Source: Massalongia carnosa
Lineage: Eukaryota
Direction of reading: 5' to 3'
Length of the DNA: 64,000 bases
Assembly: GCA_965645245.1 (NCBI GenBank)
Contig: OZ287072.1
Span: 2,170,001-2,234,000, forward strand
The notes beneath the pieces were generated by a model. It ran no database searches and was not told where the DNA came from. It saw nothing but the letters and a program-made list of their open reading frames with translations. The position numbers were made by a program, and so were the translations under genes. Position 1 is the first letter of the stretch, and every line of letters starts with the position of its first letter. Positions 16,728-38,966 of the stretch are shown in pieces.

Positions 16728-17188
16728 TGTAATTCGCGGGCTCCATCATGTCAGCTGAACATATACATAATTTCTATCTATGTTTGGGCAACTCTCCCCT
16801 CGCTGCTGCCCTGCTGGCGCTCAGTTTTGCTGAGGGCCCCTCCTATAATGGCTTTGTTTTGGCAGCAGTGAGGGGAAAAACTCCATCTACCTATGCGGCT
16901 GATTCAGGGAGTGGGTGGGTGGGCAAAAGACCTTTTGGTGCTGAACTCCGAATCAATGGTGATGATGAGGAGAAGAGTGCCAAAAGGCCACCTATTTATG
17001 CCCTTTCTCTCCCTTGCTTGTCCAACTATTTTGGACATCATCCTCCTTTGTCCTTCGGCCTTCGTTGGCTGTTCGCGGTCTGCCTCCACTCGGTCCTTCG
17101 GCTATCCACGGCCTTCAGCCTTCGTCGGCTGTTTCGCGGCCTGCCTCCACTCGGTCCCGGCATTACCTTTCGCCTTAGCCGAATTACT
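16728..17188 (+). mobile_element. Younger solo-LTR-like repeat (~460 bp) of the same family, inserted in opposite orientation into the older copy
   Basis: 8-bp inverted termini GTAATTCG (16729) and CGAATTAC (17187). TATA(T) direct repeat on both sides once the pogo element is removed. Internal ~50-bp duplication (17052-17100 and 17112-17160). Non-coding. Confidence 0.65.
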
Positions 17189-17202
17189 ACAGTGAACCCT
17201 GG

Positions 17203-18529
17203 CACGCGGGGGACAAAAAAAAAACTACACCAAAATTTAACCGGGTTCAACCCCCCACCAAAACACAAGCAATTTCCATACAATTTTGATGGGATAATCA
17301 CCATTTCAACAACCAGTCATCCAATTCATTCAATCTATTCAATAACCAGTCATTTTACCCTCACCATCCAAAACAGCTCTCAATCTATCTGGCATAGTAG
17401 ACACCCGTTCATTGATAAATGCCTGGGAAACGTTCGCCCACCCCTCATAAATTAGCCCCTTGGTCGTATCATCATCCAATGAGGATATTTTTTTAAATAT
17501 TGCTTCGGGGCCTGCCAGCAATTTTCTATGGGGGCCAAATCAGGTGAACATGGACAGTTGAAATAGTGCTTCAGATCGTTGTTCTGCTTCCAAGTGCGTA
17601 CAATGTTTGATTTGCCTGGTCCATGTCCAGAATCACCGTCTTCTTCTAAGACGAAATCGTGTTTTGCTTCAATCCAGGGCTTCACAATAGGCTCCAATAT
17701 AGAGTCGATATAGACTCGTTGACTCATCTTTCCATTGGAGTTTCCAGGAACTCTGTAAAAGTAGATATCTGACTTGAAGTCATGACCTGCAGCAGCCCAA
17801 CAGTGATGTCTCTTCTTGACGGCCTCGTCTGGTTCATCTGCTTCTTGAATACAATCATGACAATAACGTTCACCTAATCTTCGTATGATGCGTAATTTGC
17901 CCTGAGGTCCCCATCCAAAGTGCACTTCGTCACTAAATCGAACTTGTTTCCAGTCTTCTGCATTTGGATATCTAGAAAGCATAGCATCTGACCACTTCAT
18001 ACGAAGCTTTCTTGTCTTCTCGTTCACCCATCCCTTTCTGCACGCAATGCATTTGTGATAATCCATGGTGCCCATGATTCGTTGAATGGTTTTGCCACTG
18101 CAGTCTAGGCCTACTTCGAAGCCCAATTGCTCTCATGTAAGAGCGCGCGCCTCCATACCTTCTTCTTCCAATAGCCGTTCCATTTCTCTAATCAATTTAG
18201 GCGTAACAATTTTGTGACGCCCACGAGCTTCAGAAACATCGGAATTATTATGATGACGGCGTGATGAGGCTCCTTCACGCAGGTATGCATAGCCCCTCGT
18301 ACGTTCCACATCAAATGTGCGAAAAACATCCTCTTTGTGATAAGAAATGCCTTGCTTTTCGCAAAATTCAACGGCTCCCTGAATTTTAGCTTTGGTAGGA
18401 GTCTCGATATGTTTAGAATTCATAATAATGATAATTATCCCATCAAAATCGTATGTAAATTGCTTGTGTTTTGGTGGGGAGTTGAGCCCGGTTAAATTTT
18501 GGTGTAGTTTTTTTTTTGTCCCCCGCGTG
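17203..18529 (-). mobile_element. Tc1/IS630-type DD37E transposon, copy 1 (1327 bp, ~100-bp TIRs, 5-bp TSD CCTGG)
   Basis: Termini CACGCGGGGGAC(A)10CTACACCAAAATTTAACCGGG (43 bp perfect, ~100 bp imperfect). CCTGG at 17198-17202 and 18530-18534. Near-identical to 37488-38814. Confidence 0.95.
17339..18423 (-). pseudogene. DD37E transposase, copy 1 (nonsense codon + frameshift)
   Basis: Motifs VRFSDEVHFG, FVLEEDGDSGHG, SPDLAPIENCW. TGG>TGA at 18133-18135 and a 1-nt deletion at ~17476 relative to copy 2. Confidence 0.9.
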
Positions 18530-18793
18530 CCTGGTTAAAACGAACCTTTTTCCAACGAATTCGGCTTATAACGAATTTTTTTCATGGATGAGCGATTCTT
18601 GTATGTAAAATAACGAATGTCGGCCTATTGCGAATTCGTAAGCAATTTTAGAAAGTTTCTTAGTGATTCGCTATAACTAGACCTCGGCAATTACCCTTTT
18701 AGGATTAGCTGATAAAAATTCTTGATACGTAGTACTACATGCTGCGCATCCTATCGATAGATAACATATCCTTTTAATAACCAACAACACATC

Positions 18794-20449
18794 ATGAATT
18801 CTTCCTCCAAAAAACGTCGTCGACCTACCACAGATGCAGAAAAACACGCGCTTCGTCAGTATGTTCAGAATAATTTCGTTAAAAGACCTTTCGGCAAAGC
18901 TCTTCAAGTCTGGTTTGAAGCTGAATTCGGTCATACACCTTCGGAATCTACAATATCGGATATTCTTTCTCGAAAATACGATCGTTTAAATGAGAAGGAG
19001 ACATTTCAACCTGATATCAAAAGATTGAAAGCTTCTTTTTGGCCGGATCTTGAAGCGGCTCTTTTCGAATGGCAACAACGAATGCAGATAAAGCAGGCGA
19101 CTGTGACGGGAGAGTTATTGAAGGAGATGGCAAAGAAAATCTGGACAAGACTTCCTCAATACTCTCATGAAGAAATGCCCAAATTTTCTAACGGTTGGCT
19201 AGATGCTTTTAAAGCTCGTCATTCCATCTCCTTTCGTATTCGACATGGAGAAGCGGCATCAGTTGACAAGGAGACAGTGGAAGAAGAATTGAGGGACTTG
19301 AGAATTAAGTTGGCTCCGTACGATCAAGACGATGTATACAACATGGATGAGGCTGCCTTGTATTGGAAGATGAATCCGAATGGAACGTTGGCTACAGCTT
19401 CATCTGCTGGATTGAAGCTTGAGAAAGCTAGAATAACCGTTAGTTTTTGCGTTAATGCAACGGGCACTCATAAACTTCCACTTTTGTTCATTGGTACGGC
19501 AAAAACACCTCGCTGTTTTACGCGTGAGGGGATCAACGTTAGCAACCTGAATATGCTATGGCGAAGCAATAGAAAGGCATGGATGACGGGAGTATTATTT
19601 CAAGAGTATTTGCAATGGTTTAGTCGTCAAACAAATCGCAAAGTAGTCTTGCTAGTCGATGGATTTTCAGCTCATGTTGCTGGCTATCGTCAGTATTCAG
19701 AATCAAATCCTGAATCAAACGTTAAAGTGATATCTCTTCCTGCCAATGCTACAAGCATCTGTCAACCATTGGATCAAGGCATCATCAAGACGTTTAAGGC
19801 TCACTACAAGCGAAAATGGCTAGCCTTTTTATGTGATCAGTATGATGCGGACAAAGATCCTTTTAAGAACATGCATATTTTGCAAGCTATTCGTTGGTCA
19901 ATGACTGCTTGGGAGTATGACGTCAAACCCGCTACTATCGTCAACTGCTGGATTAAGTCTTTGGTATTCTCAGCAAATTACGGACCTACTACGCAATTGC
20001 AAGCGAAGAAAATGGGCTGGACGAAAGAAAAGGGTTGGTCGAAGGCAGTTGATCAAGAGACGGAAGACTACAATCAACTAGTAAAAGAGATGAGCACTAC
20101 ATTGCAGCATTTGAAGAAGAATGATCGCATTCAAGACGTCATAAGTATTGAACGATGTCTCAATCCCGCGGAAGAAATCATTGAGGATGATGATGATGAC
20201 ATTCTTGATACTATTGTGGATGCATACGCCGAGGGTCAAATTGAAGAATCGGATGAAGATGAGATCGTCAAACCTACAGTGAAATACTCTGAAGCTATTC
20301 AAGCTTTGAGAATACTACGTACATTTCATGAGCAACAGGAAGATGGCGACATCGATCTGATTCAACGTTTGAATGCTTCGGAGCAGGTTATGCTAAATGG
20401 GGAAATCAATACTAGAAAGCAGATGACCATTACCAGCTATTTTAGGTAG
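18794..20449 (+). CDS. pogo/Tigger (CENP-B-like) transposase, intact 551 aa
   Basis: HTH-CENPB region (WPDLEAALFEWQ...FSNGWLDAFKARH) and catalytic NMDEAALYW, LLVDGFSAH, LPANATSICQPLDQGII (37 residues between the 2nd and 3rd D). Ends in QMTITSYF. Confidence 0.93.
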   Translation: MNSSSKKRRRPTTDAEKHALRQYVQNNFVKRPFGKALQVWFEAEFGHTPSESTISDILSRKYDRLNEKETFQPDIKRLKASFWPDLEAALFEWQQRMQIKQATVTGELLKEMAKKIWTRLPQYSHEEMPKFSNGWLDAFKARHSISFRIRHGEAASVDKETVEEELRDLRIKLAPYDQDDVYNMDEAALYWKMNPNGTLATASSAGLKLEKARITVSFCVNATGTHKLPLLFIGTAKTPRCFTREGINVSNLNMLWRSNRKAWMTGVLFQEYLQWFSRQTNRKVVLLVDGFSAHVAGYRQYSESNPESNVKVISLPANATSICQPLDQGIIKTFKAHYKRKWLAFLCDQYDADKDPFKNMHILQAIRWSMTAWEYDVKPATIVNCWIKSLVFSANYGPTTQLQAKKMGWTKEKGWSKAVDQETEDYNQLVKEMSTTLQHLKKNDRIQDVISIERCLNPAEEIIEDDDDDILDTIVDAYAEGQIEESDEDEIVKPTVKYSEAIQALRILRTFHEQQEDGDIDLIQRLNASEQVMLNGEINTRKQMTITSYFR

Positions 20450-21732
20450 AAAATGAGATGTTTTCGTAGAAATTAAGGTTATAACGAAAACTGGTTATAA
20501 CGAATTTTTTTCATGGAATCATCGATTCGTTATAGCCAGGGTTCACTGTATATTCAATCAACACGATGAAGTACCGCGAACTACATATAACTCTCTACTA
20601 CCATACGAATCCAAGCAGATCTTATACCAACGTCAGCTTCACCGCCAACTGTTGTAACTAGAGACGAGCTAGCGTTCGTTTCATTGAGTATTCTCCCTCG
20701 GTTTCGGCGCGCTCTGCGCACAGGATTCGAACACCTATTGCCACAAATACAGACAATGGGATTGAAGTAGTTGACCTTTACCACTGGGTCGACCGTAAGA
20801 TTTATCGATAACTTTGAGCTAGATAGTTGGTGGTCCGATTATTACGTTACTTCCCAAGAGCTGCCCTTGAGATTTGAAAATTTTCTTGAATATCGAAATT
20901 CTACCTGGCTTACAAACTAAGACATGGAGCTTCAGGGGGGAATGCGGACAAGCATTGTCACAGGTGAATTATTATATGAACTAGCATGGATGCCGATATG
21001 GCTTTATAATCACGTATATGGAGTTCGTGCCATTCAAGAGCCTGAATGGGGATGGTGATTTGGCAACCGCAACCGCCATCCTGTGGCAACAAGCAGGGCT
21101 ACGGGAAGATGTGAGTCTTGCTTGGGTTGTGGTACCTTGGAATGCTTAGCACCTACGAAGACAATTTGCAGTGATGGAACCATTGAACAAAGACTTAGTG
21201 CTGTAATTGGGAGGGTATAAGAGACAGTAGGACAAACTCCCTTAAAATATCATGTCACCTTCCAGGCCCCGAATACGATCCTTATTTCTCTCGTTCTACT
21301 CCCGGGAGGCTTCCTTTGCGCGATTATACCCTCCGAGTCGCCATCCCTACTACTACCTACGCTTCTATCTTTCCCTTCTCCCTTATAGCTTCCTATAGCC
21401 TTCCGACGATGAACTGATTTTCCATTAAGAGGGAATTATCTCCTAAACTTGCATTATCACCATCGAGAACTGAATCGCCTGGGTCTGATCCTGCAATGCT
21501 AGCAACCTGAAGTGGCTGATCGCTGCCGGATCCTAGGAGAGGTTGATTTGAGAGCGAATCGATTTGATCGTTACCAGGTACGGAATCTGGCCCGATGCTG
21601 GCAAAAAGGTTGTTGGTGCCAACTTGACTCCGGTGGTTGGTCTTGTAAATGTCTAGGTCGCATTCGAGCCTGACTAACTACAGATTTCGTTCGTTAAGAG
21701 CCATTGTTGAAGCTGAATAACCGGGTTACTTA

Positions 21733-22577
21733 CTAGATAACTGTCGTCATTATGGATTGCTGCCTGTTCCGGTATATCAGGTTAGTAGTCTGCGACTATC
21801 TTGGACGGTGCCATGCTACTTACGCAATGCTTCCGGCAGTAAGGTGCACAGGTTGTTTCCTATCCCGATGAATACATCCGCGGTTAGCCATGGTTACAAG
21901 GTCGACACTTGTCAAGGCATTTGATTCAGTAGCACTCACGCATTGACGCGGATTCTTGGGATCACAGTATCCAGTTTTGCAAAATGCGTAACAGGGACAA
22001 CGATTACCTGCCTGGTACGGACAATCATCAAGAAACTGGTCCCATTGGCTATCAATAGGAGGTGGTTGATTTGGTTCGTACGGAAATGGACCTATTCCAT
22101 TGGCGTCTGGGGTTGGCCGTGCTCCTGGTCCCTGAGTTTCTTGCGATCCTGATGTAGGAGGGAGCCCTTGTTCTTGTCCTGGGTTTGTATTTTGCCCTGG
22201 TCCTGGGGAAACTTCTTGTCCTTGTTTTGGGGGTATATTTTGCCCTGGTACTCCTCCTGCTGGTACCGCCAATGGCGAACCTTTTGTCGGGACTTTTTTC
22301 AATGGGATTTTGTTTGATGATGGTGGTGGGTTCACGGCTAACCAGTCAGACCCAGGTCTAAGCAATTTTTAGTGCACGTTCTTAGGTGGATTCGATGAAA
22401 GTATGAGCCATACCCGATATTTGAGCTGTCCCCTTGTTGGGCGTTAAAAGCATAAAATTGGTCTGGACTTAATGTACCACCCTGCTCGGGTATCAAGGCC
22501 TCATCGAAATCAACAGGTATAGATACAACAAGGACCACCACAGCAAAAAGAGTTGATATCAGTGAAATTGGACGCAT
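21733..22577 (-). CDS. Small secreted Pro/Gly/Gln-rich, Cys-rich protein (effector-like); 3' end uncertain
   Basis: Signal-peptide-like MRPISLISTLFAVVVLVVS. Introns 22413-22358 and 21939-21860 splice in frame. Cys cluster CPYQAGNRCPCYAFCKTGYCDPKNPRQC|ETTCAPYCRKHC, then a further GTAAGT donor at 21823. Confidence 0.6.
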
Positions 22578-25500
22578 GGTGAGACTACGCGACAATCTGT
22601 TTGGAACCTGTACTTTGGTGATACTTTTCAAATACCCGAGAAAATAATGGGTGGAATAAGAATCAATAGCTAAGAATATATGTACATATATATACCTTAC
22701 CTACCTCTAGGAGAAGCCCCGGTCATAAGAAGCAGATCAAGTCAAGGCTGGCCATTTATTCGCATTGTCACCGCCACTAGACAGCATCTATCCCGTCTCC
22801 CGATATGGGCAGAATGGACTTGAGCCGCGAGTAGTTGCTCGTTGTGAGACTCTCCCCCAAGCTGTAAGCAGCGAACTCAAGATGAAACCGAGCCGCCAAG
22901 GCAGATTTTCCACGTTCTCAAGGTGGAGATATAGAAATGTCTGCTTCGGAGGCCTGGGGTTGTTTCAAAACATCAGTCCCAAAGGCTTGTCCTGCTTTAC
23001 TTGTCAAGGGATGTTCAGTTTCACACTACCTATGAACCTACACGTAAAGAGGAGGTTACTAAAAAAAATCGACCTACGAGCCGAGAACATCTTAATGTGT
23101 CTAGCCGTTTGTAGGATTCATGATGGATGCCGGAAAGAAGATGTAGTCCAGCATTGATAGATATCCTCATGATATCATGTGACTACAAACGCTAAATACC
23201 GAGGAAACTTGGTTCGGTTAGTTGTTAGCAGCTTCGGTGAAACTTGACCTTCATATCATACCATTGGCCGTTGTAGTTATGATACAGTTCCGCATCTTAG
23301 CCGCACTTCAACCGGATAGGCGGGAAGGCCTCCCAAGTCATGTCCTATGGTCCGTGCCGCGTCCGGCAGGAACGAGGACGTGACGCCCACATGTCTCCGA
23401 GAACGCTTTAGTTCCCTCATAGACTGGCTGCTACTTAGCTGAGGCTCTGGGTATTGCAATCGCAGTGATCAGGCGATCAAGGTAGGATCTGCGGTAGGCT
23501 CCCTTACGTGCGGTTCTACAAATACACGCCAGCAGTATGGGTGGTGAAAAGGAACCTAAACATTGAAGTATGAAGGCAAGGGCATAAATAGCGTCAAGTT
23601 TGAAAGGAACATCCTCCCCCCCAGAACAGATTCTTGTTTCTAGACGGTTTTGTTGTTGCATCCCGTGTGAATTCACGTGGTATAAATCGTGATCCGAGAA
23701 GGTCAACCTTCCCTCCAGATACTAGGTCCTAAGTTCTCCGAAATATTTTAGCCACTCAGAGCGTTGACAGCTAAAGATGCTGATCATTCCAAGAGTGCCT
23801 TGCTTCTCGCAGGGTGGCAGGCTCTACCTAACGAGTCCCGCGAAACAGTTCCCGTTGTTTCACTCACTTCTAATTCTCCAAGTATAAAACTATTGAACTC
23901 GGTAACAAAGCGCATGACGGTTTACTGTACGGGAGCCTAGCTTAGCAGAACATACGAGAGATCGGAAAGACAAGCCTTTGATGCTTCTGGTCGGAGCAAC
24001 GAGCTGATTTTATTTCTCCTGCTCCTCTACTAGCCAATTTTGCTGATATACGATGTCATTCTTAACTATACCAAGTTCCCAGAAATCTGCGTTATCTGCA
24101 GTTCCTAGCATCCATGCCGCTATCAAAATCCACGAAAGCGTTTGAAGCCATCTCCGAATTTACAAGTCAAGCATCGGTTCAGCAAGCCGCTCTTCTCACA
24201 TTGTGAACAAGTGAAAGACTGGGTTACTCGCTATGGAATCCCACACAAAAAGCTAGAATGGTGTTGGGGTGCGAGTAATATCTTTTCAAAAGTACCTTGC
24301 TAACAAATTTGTAGACTTTGCGTCGGTAAGGATCTATGCTTCTGTTTTTGAAAATGCGTTTTTCCTTAAGGGTCTTGTCTCAGTTAAAAGCCAGTAACAA
24401 GCACAACGGTTTTGTTGGGCACTATGAAGGAGGTTTGGAGATGACTCAGAGTATTGGCAAGCCTTGTGATATTCCAGCTTCCTTATGATCCTCATTCGTC
24501 TCTTTTCTCCAGCAAAAAGCAGAATATTGGGAAGCCTTCCAATTACTTTTCACACCCCCATATTCTCCAATAGTAACGTTCAATTCTCGAGCCCACGGTT
24601 GATTCAGTATTTCGTTTCTATAGGAGGAAGGCTCCCCTGTAAGAGCGGCACGTTCTCTCCCGTCCTCTATGGCCCACTCATCGCTGCGAAAGATGCTAAT
24701 GGGAATGGGCTAATCGCCCCACTTATTAGCGGTCATTGCTTCGTTAGGATTTTTGACGTCTTTATCCAAGCAGAAGAACCTACATCAGAAGGATTTTCTA
24801 CAGGCAGCAGGACGTTTAGATTGGCGGGGGGGATTTTTCCCATAAGAATTCCTAGCGAACCAACATCCCTCCTGCACTCACAGGAAGCGATGCGAAGGCC
24901 CACAAATCATTCGCGCACAATACAAGCAAATAGTTCCAGGCCTGCAGGCGCAAGCAATCGACGATTTGTCGCTCAGCGAGAGTGTGAAAATTAAAGAACA
25001 ATTATTGAGCATGAGTTACGTTTTTATTGTTAGAGTTTTTTTAGCATTCCAAAGGTTAGAATTTCCATATCTGGAAGTAGCTCCTCAGGTTTCGCAGGTT
25101 CTAATATAAGAGGTGGCTCCTCTCCTACAAGTTACTACCTATAAATGGTAAAGAACCTAAAACCGTCCTGTTATAAGTGTTTCGGGCGTTGAACGTGATA
25201 TTCACGTGCAAGAATCTGTACTAAACGAGCTACCAGAAATACATTGTTTTCTCCACATAGAAAAGGGGCACATAAAGTATAGCATTGTCAAGCTGCAATA
25301 GGAGATTCGAGACAGGATGGTTATCCTTCATCAGGAAAGGCTAGTGTCGAAAGGGTCTAGTTAGTTCTTTGCAAGATGAATTCAACTCCCGTAGGACTCA
25401 GAACTTCCCTCATACATCTCATCATCGCTCATCGCCGAAATAAGCGCATCTGCTCCAGAAAGTTCCACTCCTTGTGAAGTTGAGGAGGTATCAAGAATAG

Positions 25501-25649
25501 TATGTATTTGATTCGTTAGAGATAGAACACTTTTCTGTCTAGGGAGTGCTGTGTCGATGATTGAGGCTAAACTGCCTTTTCGTTTCTTTTGTGCGACCGT
25601 CTGAGAAAAACCTAGCTGACTCATCCAACTCTCAGACCCCGAACTCAAG

Positions 25650-25696
25650 CCCTAAAAGGAAAGCCCTAAGCCATTAGCCCTAAGGGTTTACCCTAA
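25650..25696 (+). promoter_or_regulatory. Four phased CCCTAA (telobox-like) motifs just upstream of the SPT10-like start
   Basis: CCCTAA at 25650, 25664, 25678 and 25691 (spacing 14/14/13). The last copy ends 37 nt before ATG 25734. Confidence 0.4.
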
Positions 25697-25733
25697 TCCG
25701 GACCTAGCTCAACCCCATCTCCAAACGAACGCC

Positions 25734-27347
25734 ATGCCTGCAATGCTCGAGGACCCCACTGCCCCTCCGATATATCGTACATCCGGTCCACCTCCTTACC
25801 CAATCCCCAACAACCCCTATATCCCCGACACCATTGTCTCCCGTCTCGTCACCCTTCGCGACCGCATCACCACCGCGTCCATCCTCCCCATCAGCTGCGC
25901 TGCTGAGGTGCCCCACACCCTCCTCGCCTACCTCTGCACGCAATTCAACCTCGAGATCGAAAAGGGCGACACTTACCCCATGACCGTCCCCTTTTCGCTT
26001 GAGACCTTTGGCGCCTATTGGTTCCAGAGCTTTGGCGCCATCATGTTGCTGGGGGAAGTGGCGGGCAGGGAAGAGCTATGGGAATTGGAGCAGATGGGGG
26101 AAGATTGGAGACGGGTGTGCTTGGGCACGTTTTACATCAAGCCAAATTATCCGGGGAGGAGCAGTCATGTGTGCAATGGTGGCTTTATTGTCACCGATGC
26201 AGCGAGAAATAGGGGGGTAGGTAGGCTAATGGGGGAGAGATATCTGGAATGGGCGCCGAAGTTGGTGAGTATTCTTGCAGAAAAGGATTATCGATTTTCT
26301 TCTATTCGCCAAATGATTTGATCTTTCATTGTTCATCATCCTCTGGAAGGCATCAATTTCTTCTTGCGACATTTTGCTGACTCCTTTCCCCCTTTCTAGA
26401 ATTACAGCTACAGCGTGTTCAACCTTGTGTACGAAACAAACGTAGCCTCCATCCGTATCTGGGACGCCCTCGGCTTCAAACGCATCGGCCGTGTTAAAGC
26501 CTGTGGCAACCTGCGCTCCTCCCCCGATGAACTCGTGGACGCTATTATCTACGGTCGTGACCTCGGCCCGGAAGGCGAAGACTTTGTCTCCGAGGAACGC
26601 TTCGACAAGATCCGCTTCTACCTCAAGCACGGCAAGTATCCAAACGGCGCCGACCGGGCCGAGAAATCCCGCCTACGCTCCGCCGCCACTCACTACAAGT
26701 TGCTGCCCGCCGAGGACGAGGATTCGAGCGTGATCGGGCCCGATCGGGACAATGAGCGGCTGATGCTGAAGGATAAGGAAGTGGTGGCGGATCCGCAGCG
26801 ACAGTATGAGATCGCGAGGCAGGTGCATGCCGCGCAGCATGCAGGAATTAACAAGACCACGGCCACGATTGCGGAAAAGCATCACTGGGTACGGATCAAA
26901 GAGACTGTCAGCCTCGTGATCAAAAATTGCCCTGATTGCAAGGACACGTCCAAAGTGCCCACTGTGCGGCCGGTGGGCGAGAACAGCATGCTCTCTTCCA
27001 CATCCACCTCCCAGCCTTCCACGACGGCAGAAGCGCGGAGGTCAGTCAACGCAAACGGCCACGCGGCGGATCCTAATAGCATGATTGAGCGCTTGGTGAA
27101 TTTTGACGACCTCGACACCACGCCTACGGGAAGAGGAAGCCAGAACCCGGTCGCAATGCCCGGACATCTCCGCCATGGAGACAATGGGCTTTCCGACCAT
27201 GTTCCCGTCGCGCAGATGCATGCGCTGCAAAACTACTCCCATATCCCGCTGGACCCGCAGATCATGCAGCAACAGCATCCGCATGCGCATCTCGCCGACG
27301 ACGCGCACTTCGATCTCGACCTCGACGATGATGCGCATCAATCGTAG
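25734..27347 (+). CDS. SPT10: Spt10-like GNAT acetyltransferase with integrase-type H2C2 zinc-binding domain
   Basis: GDTYPM, FYIKPNYPGRSSHVCNGGFIV...RNRGVGRLMG, YSVFNLVYETNVAS..IWDALGF, and H..QHAGINKT...C..C. Intron 26265-26399 splices in frame. Confidence 0.9.
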
Positions 27348-28393
27348 AGCGTTGGCGATGGTTTCGGTAGGAGCCAAGCAAGCAGGATGTAGGAGGCGAA
27401 CAGTGCGGATGGGGTTTGTTCTGAAAACAGAGGATGGGTCGTTGGGGTATGAGGAGGTTTGGTGGTAGACTGAGGATGGTGAATAGGGATATGCGCAAGG
27501 CGCGACGCCGTGGAGATGGAACTGGCATGCGCATTCACCACCAGGAACCGGGAAACTCTGCCTTGGGAAACGGCGCTACATTAAAGTATTGCAGAGCTAT
27601 TCAGTGCGGGAACGGGCATTATTTATCCGCCCAGTTGCCCAAGCCTGAAGCTCTGCAAGGAAGTTTTGTATATATATCTGTATGTACGTATGTAGTTTGT
27701 ATGAGAGAGAGAGAGAGCGCGCGCGCGCGCGATCGCTGATTATAGGAAAGAAACAAAAGCACGAAAAGAAAGAAATCCATGAAGAGAGGAGCAATACCTC
27801 CTCCTTCTCCACGACTTAAACCAGACCCTCTTACCCAACCCACTTACCCACCTACCCACCTAACTCACTTAAACCGAATGACCGACTATGTATGTACTCG
27901 CAAGGAAAAGCGCTAGATACCTCCGTATTTAGGCCTGTTAACTAACTATTCATCTACCTAGCTAGCTAGATCATTATTCTTTTCCGGCGCTTTTGCGAAG
28001 GATGGAAAAGTTTGGGGGAAGGGAGATTGGCTGCGTAGGAAGGAAGAAGAGAAAGAGAGGAGAAGCGGACCTCCCACCCCCCCCCCCCCCCCCCTTCTCT
28101 CCTAGGCTCTCTCCCATCAATCTCCTTCCGTTCATTCGCTTCTCCCGAGTTTTCCCACTTCGCGATCTCGTCCCTGTGCGATTCGTGGGGGAACTTGTCG
28201 GCTCACGGTTCTGCTGAAGTCGTTGATGTTGGGGAGGGGGTTGCAACATCTGGCCTTCCACTACTCCAGAAAGAACCGTGGGGGGGGGGGGTATAGTAAT
28301 CTCTTGCCTATGTTATATTATAACCGTACTATCTGATTCAACTTTACCTATTCCATTTTGAAAAAAAAAACTCTAAAACATTGGTCAGCCATT

Positions 28394-30198
28394 CTACATT
28401 TCCATTTCATAACCTGTCAAAGCCGGTCCCATCCAGCGTTCTTCCAGTAAACAGACATCTTCATCCTCCTCAACATAATGAAACGACTCCGCGAACCACA
28501 GGTCGGGCTGTAAGAGCGTAACCGGGGCACGAGAGCTGTCAAGCCCTCCAAAGCCCGTCATAGTACTTTCTAAGGCGACCTGTAAATGATGCATGGAAAC
28601 ATCGTTAATTTCGTCGGCAGAGTCGATCGGCATGATTGTATGGTTCGAGATCCATCCGATGCTCGACACTGCCAACGACTCATTGCTAATAGAATCGCCG
28701 GCGCCATTGTGAAACCAGTATTTCAACGCCAACCTTGCCCATTCTTTTTCAAAGCTATCTTGAGACTGATGCCAGTCGGTATGTTCTATCAACTTTCGGA
28801 TGATAGCTTTTTACAGATTAGTCTAGTTTGGCCTGCAAGACTCCTAGCAGCCATTCATTGGTGCGAGTTGTCTTATCCGTTAACACTTGATTGGAGTCCG
28901 TGCTATCGAGCATAGGCTGACGAGGTCCTGTTTCCTCTGTCATTATTTGGGCTGCTAAATCCTCGCATCTCTCGATATGTTCCCCATCGACATTCAACTC
29001 ATCCGCGGTCTCTAGGAAGATTCAAGGTCCTCGGCTCGAAAAATTTCTCGAAGAGAACAGATTCTGCGTGCGGCCTAGATTTTGTTATCACTCACCCCAT
29101 TTCTATCGCCCGAGTTTGGAGATACTTTCGAGGATAGAAGAATGTGCTCGTAAAGCGTCAGTGTCCTTAGGGCGCAAAATGTAAGTACATACTCGGAAAC
29201 AGCGGGTGGAAAATGTTGTGCAGTTCCTCTAGCAAGCATTTCTGTCGACTGAAATAGCAGTGAGGCCTGTGGGCACATATTCTCATATAGTACCTCACCC
29301 GATGCATCTTTGACATCATCTGATCTTAGGAGACCAGCCAAAGAAGATTTGAGAGATACCATAGGGGTGATTTGACATGCCCGATTACCGTACACTCGCC
29401 TGAAGGCTGAGTTTGGAGCGACCTTTGAAGATTTTTCGAAGCTACTTTCAGATGACTTTGCTGAAATCGATTCAATTAGGTCAGTCATCATAGACTAAAT
29501 ATCTATCAGGTGCCCCTCGTTGGATATGGATACTGCAAGATTCGAGCTTCCCGAGCTTGAGAGCTCTTGTAGTCGTCGGTCTTGGCTTTCGGTTTGACGC
29601 TGGAGGCTTTCGGATAAGTTTTCTAGCTTGTGATCCATCAGCCGAAGGGCTTGAATATGCAGGAGATCAATTTCTCTGGCTAAAAATCTGTTCGGGAGAG
29701 GATTTGATCGTATTTCAACATAACACACCGACCGAGGATTGAAAGGCTGGCTTGGATATTCTTCAGATGCCATCCAATGCGAGTTCGTACTGCTGCTCGA
29801 GACTCTTTTTCGATTGCAGTTATGAATGCTTTGAATGCTGCCCGGACCGATAAGCCTGATTTACGGGTAGTATTTTATCGTTTGGTACAGTCATATCTCC
29901 TGGTTAAAGCAAGCCAATTTTCCAGATCCTACGTGCAGTCCTCAACCTGAATTTGCATCGATACCAGATGAAACCCCTGCTTCGTCTAGTAATCTGCCGC
30001 ACCCATCTTCGTACACAGAACTCTTACGCAGCCTAATAACCTTGCCAGCATTGTCAAGTCATGGAAAAATTCTGCCGCCACCTTATCACTCTTCGCGAAG
30101 TCATCGCAGAAGACCTTGAGCTTTCCGATTATCCCAATGCTCTGAATAGTAAGACCCAATACTCCCGCAACACTTGCTACCGCAGCTAAAGCCTCCAT
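28394..30198 (-). pseudogene. Pseudogene with fungal STAND N-terminal (HeLo-like/SesA-like) helical domain
   Basis: Starts MEALAAVASVAGVLGLTIQSIGIIGKLKVFCDDF, typical of HeLo-like N-termini. Premature TAG at 29986-29988 and further stops. Residual ORF fragments on the same strand down to 28394. Confidence 0.6.
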
Positions 30199-31063
30199 TG
30201 GATCACAAGGGCAAAAGGCAGATTCAAGCAACCAGAGGACACCAACCCCTGAAGAGACAAGAAAAACCAACATTTTAATATAGCCGAACCAAAGACAAAA
30301 CGAAGAGTAGGAGCTTGAACTCATCGGGCATGCTGATGCATCTTATCCTGTCACTCAAGGACACAAGGAAACAAGGACACTGATAATTACAACTTTTTTT
30401 GGTGGGAGCCAGAGGGGAAAGGCTCGGTCGAGTTCAACTCTATTAATTGATTAGCCGTGGGAGAGCATGAGGATTTATGTATAATGGAAAGGCCTGTTTT
30501 TAGAAAGATTGCACTTCGTTCTGGTTGTTGAGAGAAACATCTTTCGTCCAACTTTTTTTAGACATGTGGTATGCTCAGCTTTGAAGGTATGGTAGGCGCC
30601 TGGCAAGGCTGGAGAAGTTCGCCTCAGCCGAGCCACTACAGCCACCACAGTCATCCGAGGACCCGAACCACTAGAAGGAAACCAACAGGGTCTCATCGTT
30701 GGACCCCGGGATGAGGATTTACTTATACACCTCAAAGGCACATCAAGTAGCGTTAACCTCACAAGTCGCTCCAGGCAGGCCCGGCCTGGGGGGAACACAT
30801 AAGTAGATTAATCAGGTAGCGGTCTAACAAAGAAGAGTTGCATTTCAGACTCTCCATGTCCTTCGTCTCCCCATGCCTTCCTCGTCCGTTCCGCCATGGG
30901 TAGAATACATCCGTCAATCCGTCCAACCGTACCATGTACATAGAATCGAAGATAAAGCATTAAAGCGCTCGCCGCCGAGATGAGACTGATCAGGAAATAA
31001 GATGGAATGGGGGTATAAAAAGCCATGCTAAAATCCTGCCAAAATCAAGTAGCTCACACTCAG

Positions 31064-34000
31064 TTATTTCCCTAATTCGTTAATTGTAGTCGTACACTCC
31101 TCTCCTTTTTTCTTCTCCTCCGCCTCCTTCCTCTTTCCCATTTCCTTGATAGCTGGTGCTGGTGCTGGTAGTAATGATGTAGGAGCGGCAGCAGGGGCTT
31201 TACCAGCGTTGATCTTCTCCTTTTGCGCTTGCGCAGTTTGCAAACAATCGATGTAAGTGCGAAACTTGACGATTTCGTGCAAAAGATACGAAGACTTGCG
31301 TTCCCAATTCGCCATGGCTTTGCTCGAGTTGGGGTGACGGGGAGAGAACTGCACGGGCGGAGGTCAGCATGGGAGTCATGAGAAATGTGTTTGCAGTGCC
31401 AAGGGAAACAGGAAGTCAAAAGATACTTACCGCCAGAGCAACCGCAGCCCGCAGCTCGTTATGGTTTTGCAGCTCCTCTTCAACATTCTTCACGTAGGTC
31501 TGCAAAGCTTTAAGCTGGTCCACCTCTAAGAGCACGCTGGCCAACATGCTCTGCTGCGGAAAAGTCCAGTCGCTGATGACGACCTTGTCGCCGGGCAATT
31601 TGGGCCGGAAGCTACTCTGATCAACGGAGCTCCTGATGGAACTCTGTAAACTCGGTCGTGGCCCAACGATGCTCGCGGTCGAAGGAGGTATGTTTTCGTT
31701 GTGTAGCAGGGCAGCATTGATGATAGATTCACTCCAGCCGTATTCTACGTTACTGACCCCACCCACCAAAGGCTCTTTGGATAACCGAGCGCTCCAATAA
31801 TTGGCCGTGGTCACGAACTCTTTAACGATTTCAGGCGTACCAACCTGGAAAAGATGAACTGCACCGGTGGGTAAACTCAAGGCCCATACATGAGGTCTAG
31901 TTTTGGAATACCCTGGCGGTGGCAGCGCGCTGGCGATGGTCTGACGCAGCAAGAACTTCCCAAGCGCTTCCGCGCTATCGGTCCAGTTACCACCACCAAC
32001 AACACCGCCGGGGGCTTTTTGATTCTTGGCTTTTTGACGCATGGATTTGGCGTTCATGCTGAAAGAAAATAATCGCATCCATCCTTTCTCGATCACCGCA
32101 AAACTTTCCACCCAGTTTCTGTCCTTTGCTTTTTTGTCGAGAGAATCGAGGTGATGCTTGTGCTTTAGGATACCCTCTTTTGCCCACGGCGCGCCAGCCA
32201 ATTCGAGGCTCTCGTCTTCAAGCAAAGGTGCAGTCCGTAGATTATCTTCGATAGCGTCACCACTAGATTCTTCCCGGATGATTGCCTGGCTTAAAGCGTT
32301 GGCGAATCCGATAGACTTTTGATAGTCACCCTGAGGAAAACTGGATGCCAAGGAGTCAATAGACATTGAAGTTTGCGTTTTTCCGAAAGAATACTTGCTC
32401 CAAGTGCTCGATACGGATGGGCTCCACATGGACGATTGATCTTCAAGACTTGTACGACTGGAATCTCCGGTTGAAGCCGGATAAACCCGTGGCCGAGATC
32501 GGGTTTTCGAAGTCCATCGCCCGGTTCCAAGGCGATGCTCTATGGGCCGCCCTCGATAACTGAGATGTTCAGAACCAGCCTTGCTGAGCATACTAGGAGT
32601 GCGGCGAAGCATATTTCCAGTGATCGCCGAAAGACTATTCGGGTAAACTGAGTGATCCGGATTGTTCTCTTTGATATCGTTCCCATGAAGAGGTAAACTT
32701 TGCTGCCGGATGGAGTTGAAAAAGTCCTTTAACACGATCTCAACCTGAAGCTCCCATGTAGTCATCTTGCCCCGGAACTCTGATTTGACCAACGGCCCGC
32801 AGTCATCGACAGGAGTCTCATAATCGAGGGGTGTCGGCGGTCCACTCGTTGAGTGTGCTTCGTCTGAATGGTCTGATGGTCGGGTAGACAGTCTGTAAGA
32901 CGGCCGAGAAGCCTCAAACGAACGCCGTCCCCCTGGAAGCTCCGATAAAAAGGTCGGTATTTGCTTTCGCTCCGAGGTCGATCCAGTCCCAGCTCTAAGA
33001 GCTGGCAAGGTGGAAGAACGAGGGTTTTCGAAGCCGTCTGGAGCGGCATCTGTTGCTACACGTCGAATGGTTGGTATCGTATTCTTGATAAATTGAGCTC
33101 TTGTCATTTTTTGTTCGATACCAGCCATGTGGAGGTCAGTGTTAAGAAGCAATATGGAGTAACAGATGGTATGTACAACGTCTCATTGAAGTCAGCCAAG
33201 GCCACTGCGATAAGTTTCTAAAACGTACCTGTTGCCTTGAAACCATGATTAGGATTGCAAGCACACCAACGCGTGGAGAAGGCATCCAGTATCCGATCCA
33301 CTTGCTGAGTCTCGCCCTTCAATAATAGTCGACTGCAGAAATCCCTCAGGGACGCCAGGATATTCAGATTCTGCCATTCAAAGAGCTCCATATACGCCCG
33401 CCTCACCCTTGTTCTATCTAGCTCTGGCTCACCTAGCCATGCGGCAGCCTTCGTTTTAGGTACAAAATCTTCATCTCCATCATATATTTTCTTAGCTTGC
33501 AAATGGTCTTCCGCAGTCAGTACAATCACGTCTGTATCAGGGGCTGATCTATTTATGACGACACTCATTGGGTAGTCAGGCTTGCCCTTTGCGTCGCTTA
33601 CTTTTTCTGTCTGTAACGTGGAAAATGCCGAGCAGTAATCACTGGTGGGATTGACTTGAGGAGCTTCACGGTGCAACTCAATCTGGCAAAGCTTTGGTAG
33701 GTCATCGTGAGAGTTTGCAGGTTCTAGCCACACTCTACTTGACTTTCCGGATGAGCTTGGAGGTAAGATATTTTTCTTGGCAGGAGTGAGACGGGCTACT
33801 GGAAGCCGATCCTTTGCTCCAGCATTTAAGGCGGAATTTGCTGAGGCATTAGAAGCCGCTATAAGTTTGTTGCTTCTGATTGGTATAGATTGAGTGTCTG
33901 GGGATTTGCCAAGGTCTGAGACGGAGTGCTGTAATTGTCTGCTTGTAGGCTTCAACTTTGCAGCGGATTTACGCGTCTCCCCGGTTGATGTTGCATCAAC

Positions 34001-36016
34001 TGGAAGATTTGGTGGAACTCGGCTGGATGCTACAAGATCTATATGCGTAGACTTGTTAGAATCAGAAGACTTGCTCATGCTGATCTCTGCGCTGCTGCTA
34101 TCATGTAGGAAAGACGCTTGTAACTGAGACTGGTGAGGTGGCGCTGTAGCTAGTTCTTTAGGGTTAGATTTCATCTTAATTCTAGGGCTATCCCTAACAA
34201 GCGTGGTCCCATCCTTATGTTGGGTGCGAGATATAGCGGCTGCATCAACACTCATCCCAGATCCTCGAGAAGACACCGTCCGCTCCACGAGCGATTTTGG
34301 AAGTGCCGGGTTGGATGACGGACCCATGCTGCTATGATTACTTCGAACTGGACCTTGTGATCCATTCCGATGAGGCTGTAAAGGTAGTGCGTTACTCAGA
34401 TATGGGTTCATTACTTCACGTAAGCTGCTCACCGGACTCAACCCCTTGCTGTGATCGGCAGGAGCAGCAGTCGGCTCTGCCTTGACATGTGTTTGTACCT
34501 GAAAGGGGACAACCGGCGTAACGTATTGTTCCGAGATAGACTTCTTGCGCCTTCGGAAGAAAGACGAAGGTTTCTTGACCAATGGAGGTGGCGCATTCTC
34601 TTTGGGTAGATATGTTGCTCCCTCAGTCGGAGGTGGCTTATACAGCTTGTGGGGAGAGGTAAAGCCAGTTCGGCTATCTGCCCGAATACTATACTGTGAG
34701 GATTGTGCTGGGTTTGTACGCACATCGGGAGTCGAAAGGGGAATGTTTCTTGATGATCCAAACACTCTCCTGAAGAACCCCGGTCGTTCTTTGGGTGAAT
34801 CTTTGGCCTGAGGCACCAAGCTTTGTTTTTGACCCATCGAGGGATCCCGTGGCTGTCGGACTGGACTTGCGTTCCTCGAAATTATGAATGCTGGTATTAA
34901 AGGCGCCTCTTGCAGCTCATGCGCTGCATCAGCAAAATCATCACCAACCCTAGCTAGCGTATCCCAATTGGCATCCCCTCCTTTGCTTCTGCTTTGTATT
35001 TGGGTCTTAGAAGACCTGTTGCTGTCTCTACGCTGAATCGATGGCGCTTGCGCGGATGAGTACGGAGGTGGTGGATTAAATACTGGAGAGCGATCTCTAC
35101 TAGGCGAGCTAGCAGGAATGATAGGCGTGGGAGCAGGGTCAGAGGTAGAATAGTGAATGGGCCCAGAAGCGCCGTGAGGCAACAGTGAATTGGCTGGATT
35201 CAACGGCAATGTGTATGCTCCTCGGCTACCGCGGTTCTGATCGAAACTCGACGACCGGCGACCGGTCGTGGGCTGCCACCGTGGTTGTCCCACCAAATGT
35301 CCGAAATCCACACTGGATGATCCGCTGCTTTTATTGCTGATTCTCCCCTTACGCGATGTCAGGGCCCCAGCCTTTTCGCTGGAAGACTTCCTTTGGCCTT
35401 GGTTTGTAGCTGCTCTTACGCGATCCAACGTATTCTTCCCGCCTTGAATGCTGTCAATTCTGCCTAACGCGGACTGAAAATTAGAGCTACTGGTACTGCG
35501 GCGACCCCGAGTCAATTGGCCCGAGGAACGAAGAGGTGAGTCGTCGGAGGGATACGCATAATCCGTGTTCAGGGATGAGGATTGTGTGTGGCCACGACGA
35601 TGAGATCCCTTTGGTGACGCGAAGCGCGAATGGGAGGGGAATGAATGCTGATCTGGTGGAGTAGAGCCGAACTTGAGTTGATCAGGATTCAGTGAGAGTA
35701 GCATATGGTCCACCACAGAATGTCGAGCATTATCTGAGAACGAAAGATCATGCGAAATCCTCTGATCTCGGTGTTCCTGTCTAACATCCCTTACATGATC
35801 ACCGTCCTTCAGGCCATTAAGATATGTCTCGCGTGGGGTCGATCGATTGGCATGCGCCTTTGATGCACGTTGACCTCTGGTTCGGATCCTGTAGGGTGGG
35901 GTACGAGGAGGTGAGTCGCTGTAGGACGCATGCTTCATAGGAGGTCTTATGTCCAGCGACGGCGGGGGACGTGACCGTTGCATCGACGGTGCCGGGGTAT
36001 CTTTGCGATCTATCAT
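31064..36016 (-). CDS. SYT1: Sec7 + PH domain Arf guanine-nucleotide exchange factor (Syt1/EFA6-like)
   Basis: Sec7 motifs LKGETQQVDRILDAFS..W and DVVHTICYSILLLNTDLH. PH region GAPWAKEGILKHKHH...ANYWSARLSKEPL, then WERKSSYLL. Introns 33228-33182 and ~31430-31349. Confidence 0.88.
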
Positions 36017-37487
36017 GGCGGCGATTTGTCAAATTCGTTCAAAGGACATACCGCAAATATTCAGTCAGTTGATGGAAGCGCAACGAGGGGCAATCGTTTC
36101 TGAATCGCAAGTGGCAGCGACAGCGATAACAACAACAACAACATCCACCAAGCTCAATAGTCGCTGTAGCCAAACCAGCATCTGAAGAGACGGTGAGGTA
36201 GCGTCGAACCGAGCATGAGTTGTCCCTCTGTCTGCCATTCCATTGGACGTTTACTGAAACAGGCGTAATGCCATGTTGCAAGTTGCAGAAAAGGGGATTG
36301 ACGAGAAGTTCCACTCCTGTACCTAGCCAAGCGTGCCGTGATGCAACCAATTAAGATTACATGTCCGCTTTGATTCCAGGCTCTCTACAGAGTACTATGT
36401 TTCCTACGAGATGATACTGCCCATAAGAAGGATAAGATACGCAAGATGCAGGGCTCCAGTGTCATTTTCACTTCCCAAGATAGTATTATTTTTCCCCATT
36501 GGTCCAATCAATCAACTCTGCGCGTAAGAAATGTTTCAGGGAAATTTTGTACACGTGACTTCGCGTTCTCAGCCTTAAGTCCTGAGTGGATGATCAATGT
36601 AACAACTAGGTAACTATCAATTCTCCAAGCTTCTGCTCGCTCACTAACCTTAGCATCTCGCTCAATTCTCGAAATCCACTACGGCGCTCCTTGTCACCGG
36701 TTTCAGGAACATTCATTTACGAATACAAGTCTAATCAAGATAGAATGCGCAAGACTACGAGCTCACAGAGTCCCGCTCTGGAACATATGCTCCTGCTTAT
36801 CCTTCAGAACGAAGGCCTGTCTCGCCACTGATGGAAGATAATAGTATTACGTTTAGGCAACGATTGGGAACTCAGCATCATTTGCTCTGTGGTAACGAGT
36901 AACGCTAGTCGTCGTCGTGATATCAACTAGTAGTAGTCCTTCGCTTCATCTCCTGGTTCGCTTTCCTCCGAGGCCGTTAGCGTAAAGTAGATCAGCCATC
37001 TTACCAATGTCTTCCTTTCTGCGAAAGTATTGTGGATTTGTGAGAAGTACTGCCCAGTCGTGAAGTGCACTACTAGAAAGTTCTTAAGGATTTAAGCAGT
37101 ATCTAAAGGAGTGGAAAGACATTTTTCTGAGCATCGCAAATTGAAAATATCATGGACTTTCAAGGAACAAGGCATGCACCTTTTGACATGCATGAAATCA
37201 AAGAACTAGCAACAGAAGCATGAAGAATGAAGAATGATTTTAATGAGTATTGATTTGAAGCCTTGCACGCTGAAAAGATACGGGACAGGCTATGGTAGCC
37301 CTTTTGCTCTTAAGTAGATTAAAGCTAAACTACTGATAGAACGTGCACCGCCAGAGAATTTTGCAGTCCTACTTATCTCATGGGCTGTTTAGATGATGAT
37401 CGACCATTTTAGTGATCTATATAGTAAAATTTGTTAGGTTACAATTTTTTCTTGGGAGGAAGCAGAGATCTGCCGCCCGAAGCATGC

Positions 37488-38814
37488 CACGCGGGGGACA
37501 AAAAAAAAACTACACCAAAATTTAACCGGGCTCAACTCCCCACCAAAACACAAGCAATTTACATACGATTTTGATGGGATAATTATCATTATTATGAATT
37601 CTAAACATATCGAGACTCCTACCAAAGCTAAAATTCAGGGAGCCGTTGAATTTTGCGAAAAGCAAGGCATTTCTTATCACAAAGAGGATGTTTTTCGCAC
37701 ATTTGATGTGGAACGTACGAGGGGCTATGCATACCTGCGTGAAGGAGCCTCATCACGCCGTCATCATAATAATTCCGATGTTTCTGAAGCTCGTGGGCGT
37801 CACAAAATTGTTACGCCTAAATTGATTAGAGAAATGGAACGGCTATTGGAAGAAGAAGGTATGGAGGCGCGCGCTCTTACATGGGAGCAATTAGGCTTCG
37901 AAGTAGGCCTAGACTGCAGTGGCAAAACCATTCAACGAATCATGGGCACCATGGATTATCACAAATGCATTGCGTGCAGAAAGGGATGGGTGAACGAGAA
38001 GACAAGAAAGCTTCGTATGAAGTGGTCAGATGCTATGCTTTCTAGATATCCAAATGCAGAAGACTGGAAACAAGTTCGATTTAGTGACGAAGTGCACTTT
38101 GGATGGGGACCTCAGGGCAAATTACGCATCATACGAAGATTAGGTGAACGTTATTGTCATGATTGTATTCAAGAAGCAGATGAACCAGACGAGGCCGTCA
38201 AGAAGAGACATCACTGTTGGGCTGCTGCAGGTCATGACTTCAAGTCAGATATCTACTTTTACAGAGTTCCTGGAAACTCCAATGGAAAGATGAGTCAACG
38301 AGTCTATATCGACTCTATATTGGAGCCTATTGTGAAGCCCTGGATTGAAGCAAAACACGATTTCGTCTTAGAAGAAGACGGTGATTCTGGACATGGACCA
38401 GGCAAATCAAACATTGTACGCACTTGGAAGCAGAACAACGATCTGAAGCACTATTTCAACTGTCCATGTTCACCTGATTTGGCCCCATAGAAAATTGCTG
38501 GCAGGCCCCGAAGCAATATTTAAAAAAATATCCTCATTGGGATGATGATACGACCAAGGGGCTAATTTATGAGGGGTGGGCGAACGTTTCCCAGGCATTT
38601 ATCAATGAACGGGTGTCTACTACGCCAGATAGATTGAGAGCTGTTTTGGATGGTGAGGGTAAAATGACTGGTTATTGAATAGATTGAATGAATTGGATGA
38701 CTGGTTGTTGAAATGGTGATTATCCCATCAAAATTGTATGGAAATTGCTTGTGTTTTGGTGGGGGGTTGAACCCGGTTAAATTTTGGTGTAGTTTTTTTT
38801 TTGTCCCCCGCGTG
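37488..38814 (+). mobile_element. Tc1/IS630-type DD37E transposon, copy 2 (1327 bp, 5-bp TSD CATGC)
   Basis: Same CACGCGGGGGAC(A)10 TIRs as copy 1. CATGC at 37483-37487 and 38815-38819. Confidence 0.95.
37594..38678 (+). pseudogene. DD37E transposase, copy 2 (1-nt deletion just before the catalytic E)
   Basis: Open from ATG 37594 to SPDLAP*. C4 at 38483-38486 versus C5 in copy 1. Restoring one C gives a 361-aa protein ending KMTGY* at 38678. Confidence 0.9.
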
Positions 38815-38966
38815 CATGCGTAGTAAGCTAAACAGAGTCTTAACCCAAAACAGTTAAACTATTCACTAAACTAGCTTAGCTTTAGACTAATAATATACTA
38901 ATCTAACTGCGAGGGCAAGGCAGGTCTGAGGTACTGAGGCAAGCAGAGATCTTGTCTGCAATCCTC

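Follow-up and report, generated by a model that had tools for sequence, protein, structure and literature searches.

Two copies of a 1327-bp element flanked by 5-bp direct repeats

We analysed a 64,000-nucleotide stretch of Massalongia carnosa DNA (assembly GCA_965645245.1, contig OZ287072.1, positions 2,170,001 to 2,234,000 of the forward strand), referred to below as the window. It contains two copies of a 1327-bp transposon with a Tc1-like transposase gene, each copy set between 5-bp direct repeats. The copies, their ends and their flanks are listed here in window coordinates.

17198 to 17202, no strand: lower-coordinate CCTGG target-site duplication of copy 1, read from the sequence and from the pogo end control described below
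17203 to 18529, minus strand: copy 1 of the element, with pieces of its open reading frame (ORF) at 18133-18423, 17452-18126 and 17339-17521
18530 to 18534, no strand: higher-coordinate CCTGG target-site duplication of copy 1, read from the sequence
37483 to 37487, no strand: left target-site duplication CATGC of copy 2, read from the sequence
37488 to 38814, plus strand: copy 2 of the element, with its ORF start at 37594, a 1-base deletion near 38482 and the original stop at about 38676-38678
37488 to 37590, plus strand: left terminal inverted repeat of copy 2, perfect over 43 nt and imperfect to about 103 nt, which stops just short of the ATG
38712 to 38814, minus strand: right terminal inverted repeat of copy 2, from the alignment of the inverted ends
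38815 to 38819, no strand: right target-site duplication CATGC of copy 2, read from the sequence

The copies lie in opposite orientation. An alignment that included 20 nt of flank showed three transitions and two single-base indels between them, and their similarity breaks off precisely outside CACGCGGGGG at one end and CCCCCGCGTG at the other. The element thus has CAC.../...GTG termini. Its 29-nt terminus occurs exactly (0 mismatches) four times in the window, versus none in 100 shuffles. The inverted ends are perfect over their first 43 nt and imperfect to about 103 nt, with 99 ungapped matches over the first 110 positions; the ATG lies at element position 107. Neither copy is intact: copy 1 has a stop where TGG became TGA as well as a 1-base deletion, and copy 2 lacks one base in a C-run upstream of IENCW. 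An intact 361-residue form is present in public data (P0001, 99% identical, a cluster of 42 member sequences).

CCTGG stands on both sides of copy 1 and CATGC on both sides of copy 2, each as a perfect 5-bp direct repeat. There is no TA at any of the copy 1 or copy 2 junctions.

The end of a pogo element shows that copy 1 duplicated exactly 5 bp

Copy 1 is inserted ten bases inside the left end of another transposon and disrupts that end:

17190 to 20548, plus strand: host pogo/Fot1-like element, split by copy 1, with TA flanks at 17188-17189 and 20549-20550

The pogo element retains a 562-residue open ORF (18761-20449) that matches DDE_1, HTH_Tnp_Tc5 and HTH_ABP1_N. We compared its right end (20525-20548, minus strand) with its left end after removing the insert and one CCTGG. 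The two ends matched without gaps at 21 of 24 positions, all 21 matches falling within the first 23. CCTGG is present once in the right end; therefore, exactly 5 bp were duplicated by copy 1. The paralogous pogo end serves as a stand-in empty site: the insertion added the element and 5 bp.

These results bear out the original prediction for this DNA, which had been made from the letters alone. It had placed two 1327-bp copies with identical ends at the coordinates where we find the exact breakpoints of similarity, had read distinct perfect repeats (CCTGG and CATGC) and no TA from the junctions, and had used the pogo inverted repeats as an internal control for a duplication of 5 bp.

The 5-bp duplication is a family-wide rule

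We scanned metagenome contigs with the family alignment and obtained 80 related loci, 36-70% identical to the query. Their ends were found by a script that aligned the region upstream of the gene to the reverse complement of the region downstream. Twelve loci had a short flank, 17 had no convincing inverted repeat, three had a terminus at the contig edge and eight were duplicates, leaving 40 distinct insertions. These were scored by an automatic rule: the direct repeat had to be perfect and flush with the ends, and as many as 5 bases could be trimmed in cases where a self-complementary direct repeat made the inverted repeat look longer.

By this rule, 23 of the 40 insertions had a flush perfect 5-bp repeat. 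Decoy pairs, in which the left flank of one locus was combined with the right flank of another, gave 18 in 1560 (1.2%). The same test found repeats of 4, 6, 7 and 8 bp at 1, 1, 2 and 0 loci. Anchoring on the terminal motif rescued two more insertions (L016 and L068), so that 25/40 were perfect.

We also curated a set of 27 junction pairs, selected as 25 loci plus the two window copies. The 5-bp repeat was perfect in 26 pairs. The exception, L031, showed a one-base displacement under motif anchoring and had been counted as positive by the automatic rule. TA at both ends was found in none of the 27 pairs, and 22 different 5-mers act as repeats in this set. Because the curated set was selected, the unbiased figure is 23/40 (25/40 with the anchored rescues).

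Elements of the family are compact (1.25-1.8 kb, one gene), and the ends and the gene were found together from 36% to 99% protein identity. The ends and the gene evolve together, because members only 38-41% identical (L035, L045 and L046) retain the 5-bp duplication. Short deletion derivatives of 571-582 bp also carry 5-bp repeats (L060, 2947-3528; L061/L062, 2913-3483).

Taken together, these results establish a family-wide 5-bp rule. The prediction that the EEDGDSGHG clade has a changed stagger and a non-TA target held up against the decoys and the curated junctions.

Conserved ends and a GC-rich, loosely palindromic target

We derived a terminal consensus from 50 ends. Position 1 is C in all 50; position 2 is A in 42 and T in 8; position 3 is C in 26 or A in 24; position 4 is G in 48. 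Positions 5-7 are C, G and G, positions 8-12 are K, T, G, A and C, and an A-run starts at position 13. The original prediction gave the element CAC termini. For the clade these do not hold: with base 3 split 26 to 24 between C and A and base 2 a T in 8 of 50 ends, CAC is not a clade trait.

For the target profile, 26 sites were oriented by the transposase gene, and five positions showed an enrichment that passed Bonferroni correction. Two positions before the duplication (-2), A was found in 16/26 sites (p 1e-4). The first duplicated base was C in 19/26 (p 3e-7) and the second was C in 17/26 (p 1e-5). Beyond the duplication, the second base was T in 16/26 (p 7e-5) and the third was A in 18/26 (p 3e-6). 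The duplicated bases are 70% GC, versus 50% in nearby DNA. Symmetrised, the target consensus is roughly A-S-CCWGG-S-T and loosely palindromic. The A at the third base past the duplication has no mirror-image T opposite (18 vs 6), an asymmetry that could be real or could be an effect of a small, partly similar sample.

The transposase is of the Tc1/mariner type

The element protein matched two Pfam families only. DDE_3 scored 32.5-32.6 bits against a cutoff of 28.6 and was matched by 28/28 members of the family alignment. HTH_Tnp_Tc3_2 scored 26.1-26.5 bits, under its cutoff of 31.5; it was matched at E<=0.01 by 18/28 members, with a best E of 3e-10. When the family profile was compared with PDB sequences, the catalytic domain of Sleeping Beauty was the sole match at E<=1 (E 3e-15), and the second D and the E of the family align with those of that domain.

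An AlphaFold model of the protein had a mean predicted local distance difference test (pLDDT) score of 73.4, with low values at residues 50-69, 124-131 and 173-198; residues 10-118 are helical in the model. A Foldseek search with the model matched Mos1 (4u7b, E 1.2e-10), Sleeping Beauty (5cr4, template modelling (TM) score 0.71-0.74 over the target) and SETMAR. There were 18 matches at E<=0.001, and the 15 listed were all mariner, Sleeping Beauty or SETMAR. Judged by sequence and by predicted fold, the enzyme is of the Tc1/mariner type and belongs to the Tc1 family of the IS630-Tc1-mariner group.

The motifs read in the original prediction (FSDE, EEDGDSGH and SPDLAPIENCW, with D-37-E) are all present, and the D-to-E spacing of the element protein is indeed 37. 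The DD37E label drawn from them stands for this protein and not for the clade. The spacing is 37 in P0001, L001, L003, L004 and L046; other members that duplicate 5 bp have 39 (L019), 41 (L035 and L045) or 43 (L012). The most constant clade-specific feature that we saw is the motif around the second D, LEEDG-D/A-SGHG.

Most members also have two CxxC motifs. In the 28-member alignment, C125 is present in 28/28, C128 in 27/28, C188 in 25/28 and C191 in 27/28. The first motif (P0001 125-128) falls in the linker that precedes the catalytic domain and the second (188-191) in the loop that follows the first catalytic strand; the model gives pLDDT values below 50 for both segments. H207 is invariant alongside the CxxC pairs in nearly all 28 members, and all are missing together from three distant members. 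The CxxC pairs and H207 could form a zinc site that bridges the linker and that loop.

We considered whether these features cause the altered stagger. The CxxC motifs, or the zinc site, were rejected as the cause: L035, L045 and L046 (38-41% identical) lack both motifs and their 5-bp duplications are still perfect. A D-to-E spacing of 37 was rejected too, the spacing ranging from 37 to 43 within the clade. Thus, neither the cysteines nor a spacing of 37 is required for the 5-bp duplication, because L035, L045 and L046 keep it, the first two with a spacing of 41.

Several family members (P0082, P0055, P0091, P0268 and P0270) are annotated publicly as 'HMG box protein'. A Pfam scan of 28 members, P0082 included, gave no high mobility group (HMG) domain, and because of this the name looks like a propagated misannotation.

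Abundance, host range and activity

Among 1.84 billion representatives searched by profile, 432 proteins matched at E<=1e-30, 3290 at E<=1e-10 and 12326 at E<=0.001. Named matches came from Dothideomycetes (Pyrenophora, Bimuria, Clathrospora, Ophiobolus, Macroventuria and Byssothecium), Leotiomycetes (Botrytis, Rutstroemia and Xylogone) and Sordariomycetes (Colletotrichum, Chaetomium and Parathielavia), and were annotated as 'Tc1-like transposase DDE domain' or 'HMG box protein'. No Beauveria or Fusarium protein was among the best 120 matches of either of two protein searches, one of which was seeded with a Sordariomycete member.

A nearly full-length relative, 53% identical, was present on a 3843-bp metagenome contig from an ocean survey (L029, match 183-1261), a habitat not expected of a family that is otherwise ascomycete. 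Because the outer ends of this relative have degenerated, no duplication can be read from them.

We compared the copy 2 region with the contigs of four sequencing runs (X4-X7). The word depth of the element, which is not a copy number, was 157 in X4 against about 6 for the flanks, and 1282 in X5 against 27.5. At 38482, most copies in X4, X5 and X7 have an additional C that puts the gene back in frame; its depth is full in X4 and X7 and roughly half in X5. None of the four runs has either of the two substitutions peculiar to copy 2 (37893 and 38623). X5, a lichen metagenome by its label, carries the copy 2 flanks in two pieces of about 800-900 nt, each of which shows 15 differences. It also contains an internal-deletion form in which 37697 is joined to 38362 (a 664-bp deletion). 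This form and the short derivatives at L060 and L061/L062 are non-autonomous members of the family that have kept their ends and, wherever the flanks can be seen, their 5-bp duplications.

Each window copy is 2-3 private mutations away from the majority intact sequence of the runs. Because these mutations are so few, both copies are recent insertions. As read from these sequences, the family is probably still active.

Other features of the window

The window also holds a Tc1 element that falls outside the 5-bp family:

3337 to 4660, plus strand: classical Tc1 element, with ends TA|CAAATCGGG...CCCGACTG|TA of the CAGT type

Its 348-residue ORF (3457-4503, stop to stop) matches DDE_3 and HTH_Tnp_Tc3_2 above cutoff. 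It is of the DD34E type; its identity to P0001 is 24%, and the three catalytic residues of the two proteins align. The left end of this element has a 1-base irregularity relative to its right end. One genome thus carries a TA-type Tc1 element, a TA-type pogo element and the 5-bp type.

Elsewhere in the window, a long ORF with NB-ARC and AAA_16 and a separate ORF with TPR_12 and TPR_10 (8281-11829 and 42029-42760) are typical of fungal NOD-like receptor (NLR)-like genes. An ORF at 26400-27347 that matches zf-H2C2 and Integrase_H2C2 is probably the remnant of a long terminal repeat (LTR) retrotransposon.

A Tc1-like transposon with a proposed 5-bp stagger

The element is very probably a cut-and-paste DNA transposon from an ascomycete-wide, Tc1-like branch that integrates with a 5-bp stagger at GC-rich, loosely palindromic targets, recent here and probably active. 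Its ends, the exact 5-bp duplication, the Tc1/mariner nature of the enzyme and the 5-bp rule across the family are established by the present analysis. What follows about excision and about the origin of the stagger is a proposal that we infer from the sequences. The encoded enzyme itself would make the 5-bp stagger. The 361-residue DDE transposase would bind the inverted ends of about 100 bp, which start with the consensus C-A-C/A-G-C-G-G-K-T-G-A-C followed by an A-run, and would excise the element. The two 3' ends would then be joined to the two target strands at points 5 bp apart (2 bp apart, at TA, in classical members), and gap repair would yield the 5-bp duplication.

A first alternative is that the ends are mobilised by an unlinked 5-bp transposase, Transib-like or other, and that the Tc1-like gene is a passenger. 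Transib likewise has 5-bp GC-rich duplications and ends that start with CAC; in its available text, PMC1131882 (Kapitonov and Jurka 2005) called Transib the only eukaryotic DNA transposon superfamily then with 5-bp duplications. However, the elements of the present family are compact and have a single gene, and this gene occurs together with the ends across 36-99% protein identity. A and C are about equally frequent at the third terminal base, and the terminal consensus matches the end motif of impala and mimp at 11/16 positions, by eye (PMC5579170). Moreover, no Transib/RAG1-like gene was found among the window ORFs of at least 220 amino acids that were scanned against Pfam. We regard a passenger gene as very improbable.

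A second alternative is that the repeats come from host repair, for example if element DNA, excised or circular, was captured through microhomology, and reflect no fixed stagger. Nothing specific speaks for this formal possibility. Repair capture would vary junctions and lengths, whereas the repeats are flush with precisely conserved termini and their length is sharply 5 (23 loci, versus 1, 1, 2 and 0 for lengths of 4, 6, 7 and 8). It is, if anything, slightly harder to credit than a passenger gene.

Finally, an ordinary TA-duplicating Tc1 element, with the 5-bp repeats a coincidence or a preferred landing motif that is not duplicated, has a negligible chance of being correct: a preferred CCWGG-like core alone could mimic repeats at a few sites, but the reading is refuted by the decoy test (23/40 against 1.2%), by the pogo right end, which gives the pre-insertion sequence with a single CCTGG, and by the curated junctions with their 22 distinct 5-mers and 0/27 TA on both sides.

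Several observations weigh against a family-wide stagger made by the encoded enzyme. Seventeen of the 40 insertions failed the automatic 5-bp test, including the two later rescued by motif anchoring (L016 and L068). At L074 the repeat matches at 4/5 positions, and at L006 it is displaced by one base. Seven failures have no recognisable terminus (L008, L009, L026, L029, L041, L058 and L076). Six have canonical ends and unrelated flanks (L005, L015, L022, L032, L044 and L080); chimeric assembly of the metagenome, recombination or decay of the copy may account for these. The target profile comes from only 26 sites, some of them in similar sequence contexts. No empty site of either window insertion was recovered in another isolate, and over 36400-39900 no contig of runs X4-X7 bridged 37488-38814. 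A search for paralogous empty sites, in which the left and right flanks of the 27 insertions were compared separately by BLAST with all loci and the window, gave self or duplicate matches only.

Novelty and significance

We propose only tentatively, and with somewhat less than even confidence, that this is an undescribed case for the IS630-Tc1-mariner group: a large, Pezizomycotina-wide clade (about 430 representative clusters at 50% identity), probably active, that switched to a 5-bp stagger at A-S-CCWGG-S-T. To our knowledge, no other 5-bp-duplicating case exists in the group. A full-text literature search, whose coverage left out most subscription journals, found no 5-bp duplication attributed to a Tc1, mariner or IS630-type element, and the label 'TcMar-Sagan' turned up in repeat tables only. 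Nor, within that coverage, did any paper describe hupfer of Beauveria, which the original prediction had raised as a possible Tc1-like precedent with a 5-bp target. Should the 5-bp duplication already be catalogued in Repbase or Dfam, the contribution here would be a well-documented example together with a target profile.

If the proposal is correct, the clade would be the first 5-bp-duplicating lineage of the IS630-Tc1-mariner group and a natural experiment in how the two strand-transfer attacks of a DDE transposase dimer are spaced. The TA target and the 2-bp duplication are treated as a signature of the whole group in the available text of PMC7325037 and PMC5630946; the present clade fails that best-known criterion. 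Annotation pipelines and manual surveys often demand TA flanks and would then miss such elements or set their bounds wrongly. One example is PMC4188875, on pogo-type elements of 453-574 amino acids, whose methods, in the text available, require TA flanks. The TA requirement may thus explain why the 2016 survey (PMC5630946), as far as its available text goes, lacks Tc1 elements in Dikarya, where the clade is common.

Comparable 2-bp and 5-bp enzymes in one genome would offer a tractable system for the study of stagger and target choice in DDE transposases. A compact Tc1-type transposase that acts at GC-rich, non-TA sites would also have an integration profile unlike those of Sleeping Beauty (TA) and piggyBac (TTAA).

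Comparison with known systems

The family resembles the Tc1 family in most respects. It has the DDE_3 domain; its D, D and E align with those of Sleeping Beauty and of the DD34E element in the window; its predicted fold is that of Mos1 and Sleeping Beauty. It shares a probable N-terminal helix-turn-helix region, a length of about 1.3 kb with one gene, and inverted ends that begin with CA and continue into an A-run. It differs from the Tc1 family in that it duplicates 5 GC-rich bases instead of TA, has a D-to-E spacing of 37-43 instead of 34, carries LEEDGDSGHG around the second D and has, in most members, two CxxC motifs.

Set side by side from descriptions, impala is like the present family in its fungal host, its length of about 1.3 kb, its DD37E spacing and its end motif (the 11/16 positions noted above). 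Impala reportedly duplicates TA. The mimp/impala end motif was absent from all 80 related loci. The available text of PMC7325037 treats impala as DD37E within Tc1 and TA as the shared target of the group. Impala of Fusarium oxysporum encodes a 340-residue transposase, and mimp elements are miniatures (PMC5579170).

TRT, Mosquito (MS) and L18 elements, compared by description, also share the DD37E spacing and a Tc1-like architecture. TA duplications are given for DD37E/MS elements in the available text of PMC10379824. That of PMC5630946, on TRT, takes TA as the Tc1/mariner duplication and places fungal relatives only in Mucoromycotina, with no Tc1 elements in Dikarya. In contrast to TRT, MS and L18, the present clade is ascomycete and has 5-bp duplications.

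Non-TA duplications occur in or near the IS630-Tc1-mariner group in Tc4/Tc5 (TNA), the ciliate TBE1 (ANT) and Zator (3 bp). Like the present family, these depart from TA; however, their duplications are 3 bp long and contain A/T, whereas ours are 5 bp and GC-rich. A 5-bp stagger is made by HIV (human immunodeficiency virus)-type retroviral integrases and by Mu.

Transib and RAG1 share with the family a 5-bp duplication and a GC-rich target; in some family members the ends also begin with CAC, close to an A-rich block. In the available text of PMC1131882, Transib has 5-bp GC-rich duplications, a CACAATG heptamer and an A-rich nonamer, with a 23-bp spacer. Here, the A-run follows 3-5 bases after the terminal heptamer instead of across a 23-bp spacer, and CAC is not conserved. 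The transposases are unrelated: ours has DDE_3 and a predicted Mos1/Sleeping Beauty fold, and the element has no RAG1-core-like protein. This accords with the original prediction, which held the Transib/RAG group to be unrelated despite the shared CAC and 5-bp traits; by sequence and modelled fold the enzyme falls with Tc1/mariner. Because the enzymes are unrelated, and because CAC and spacing also vary within the family, the likeness to Transib is, on the evidence of sequence and model, a superficial one: a convergence in duplication length and GC-rich targets only.

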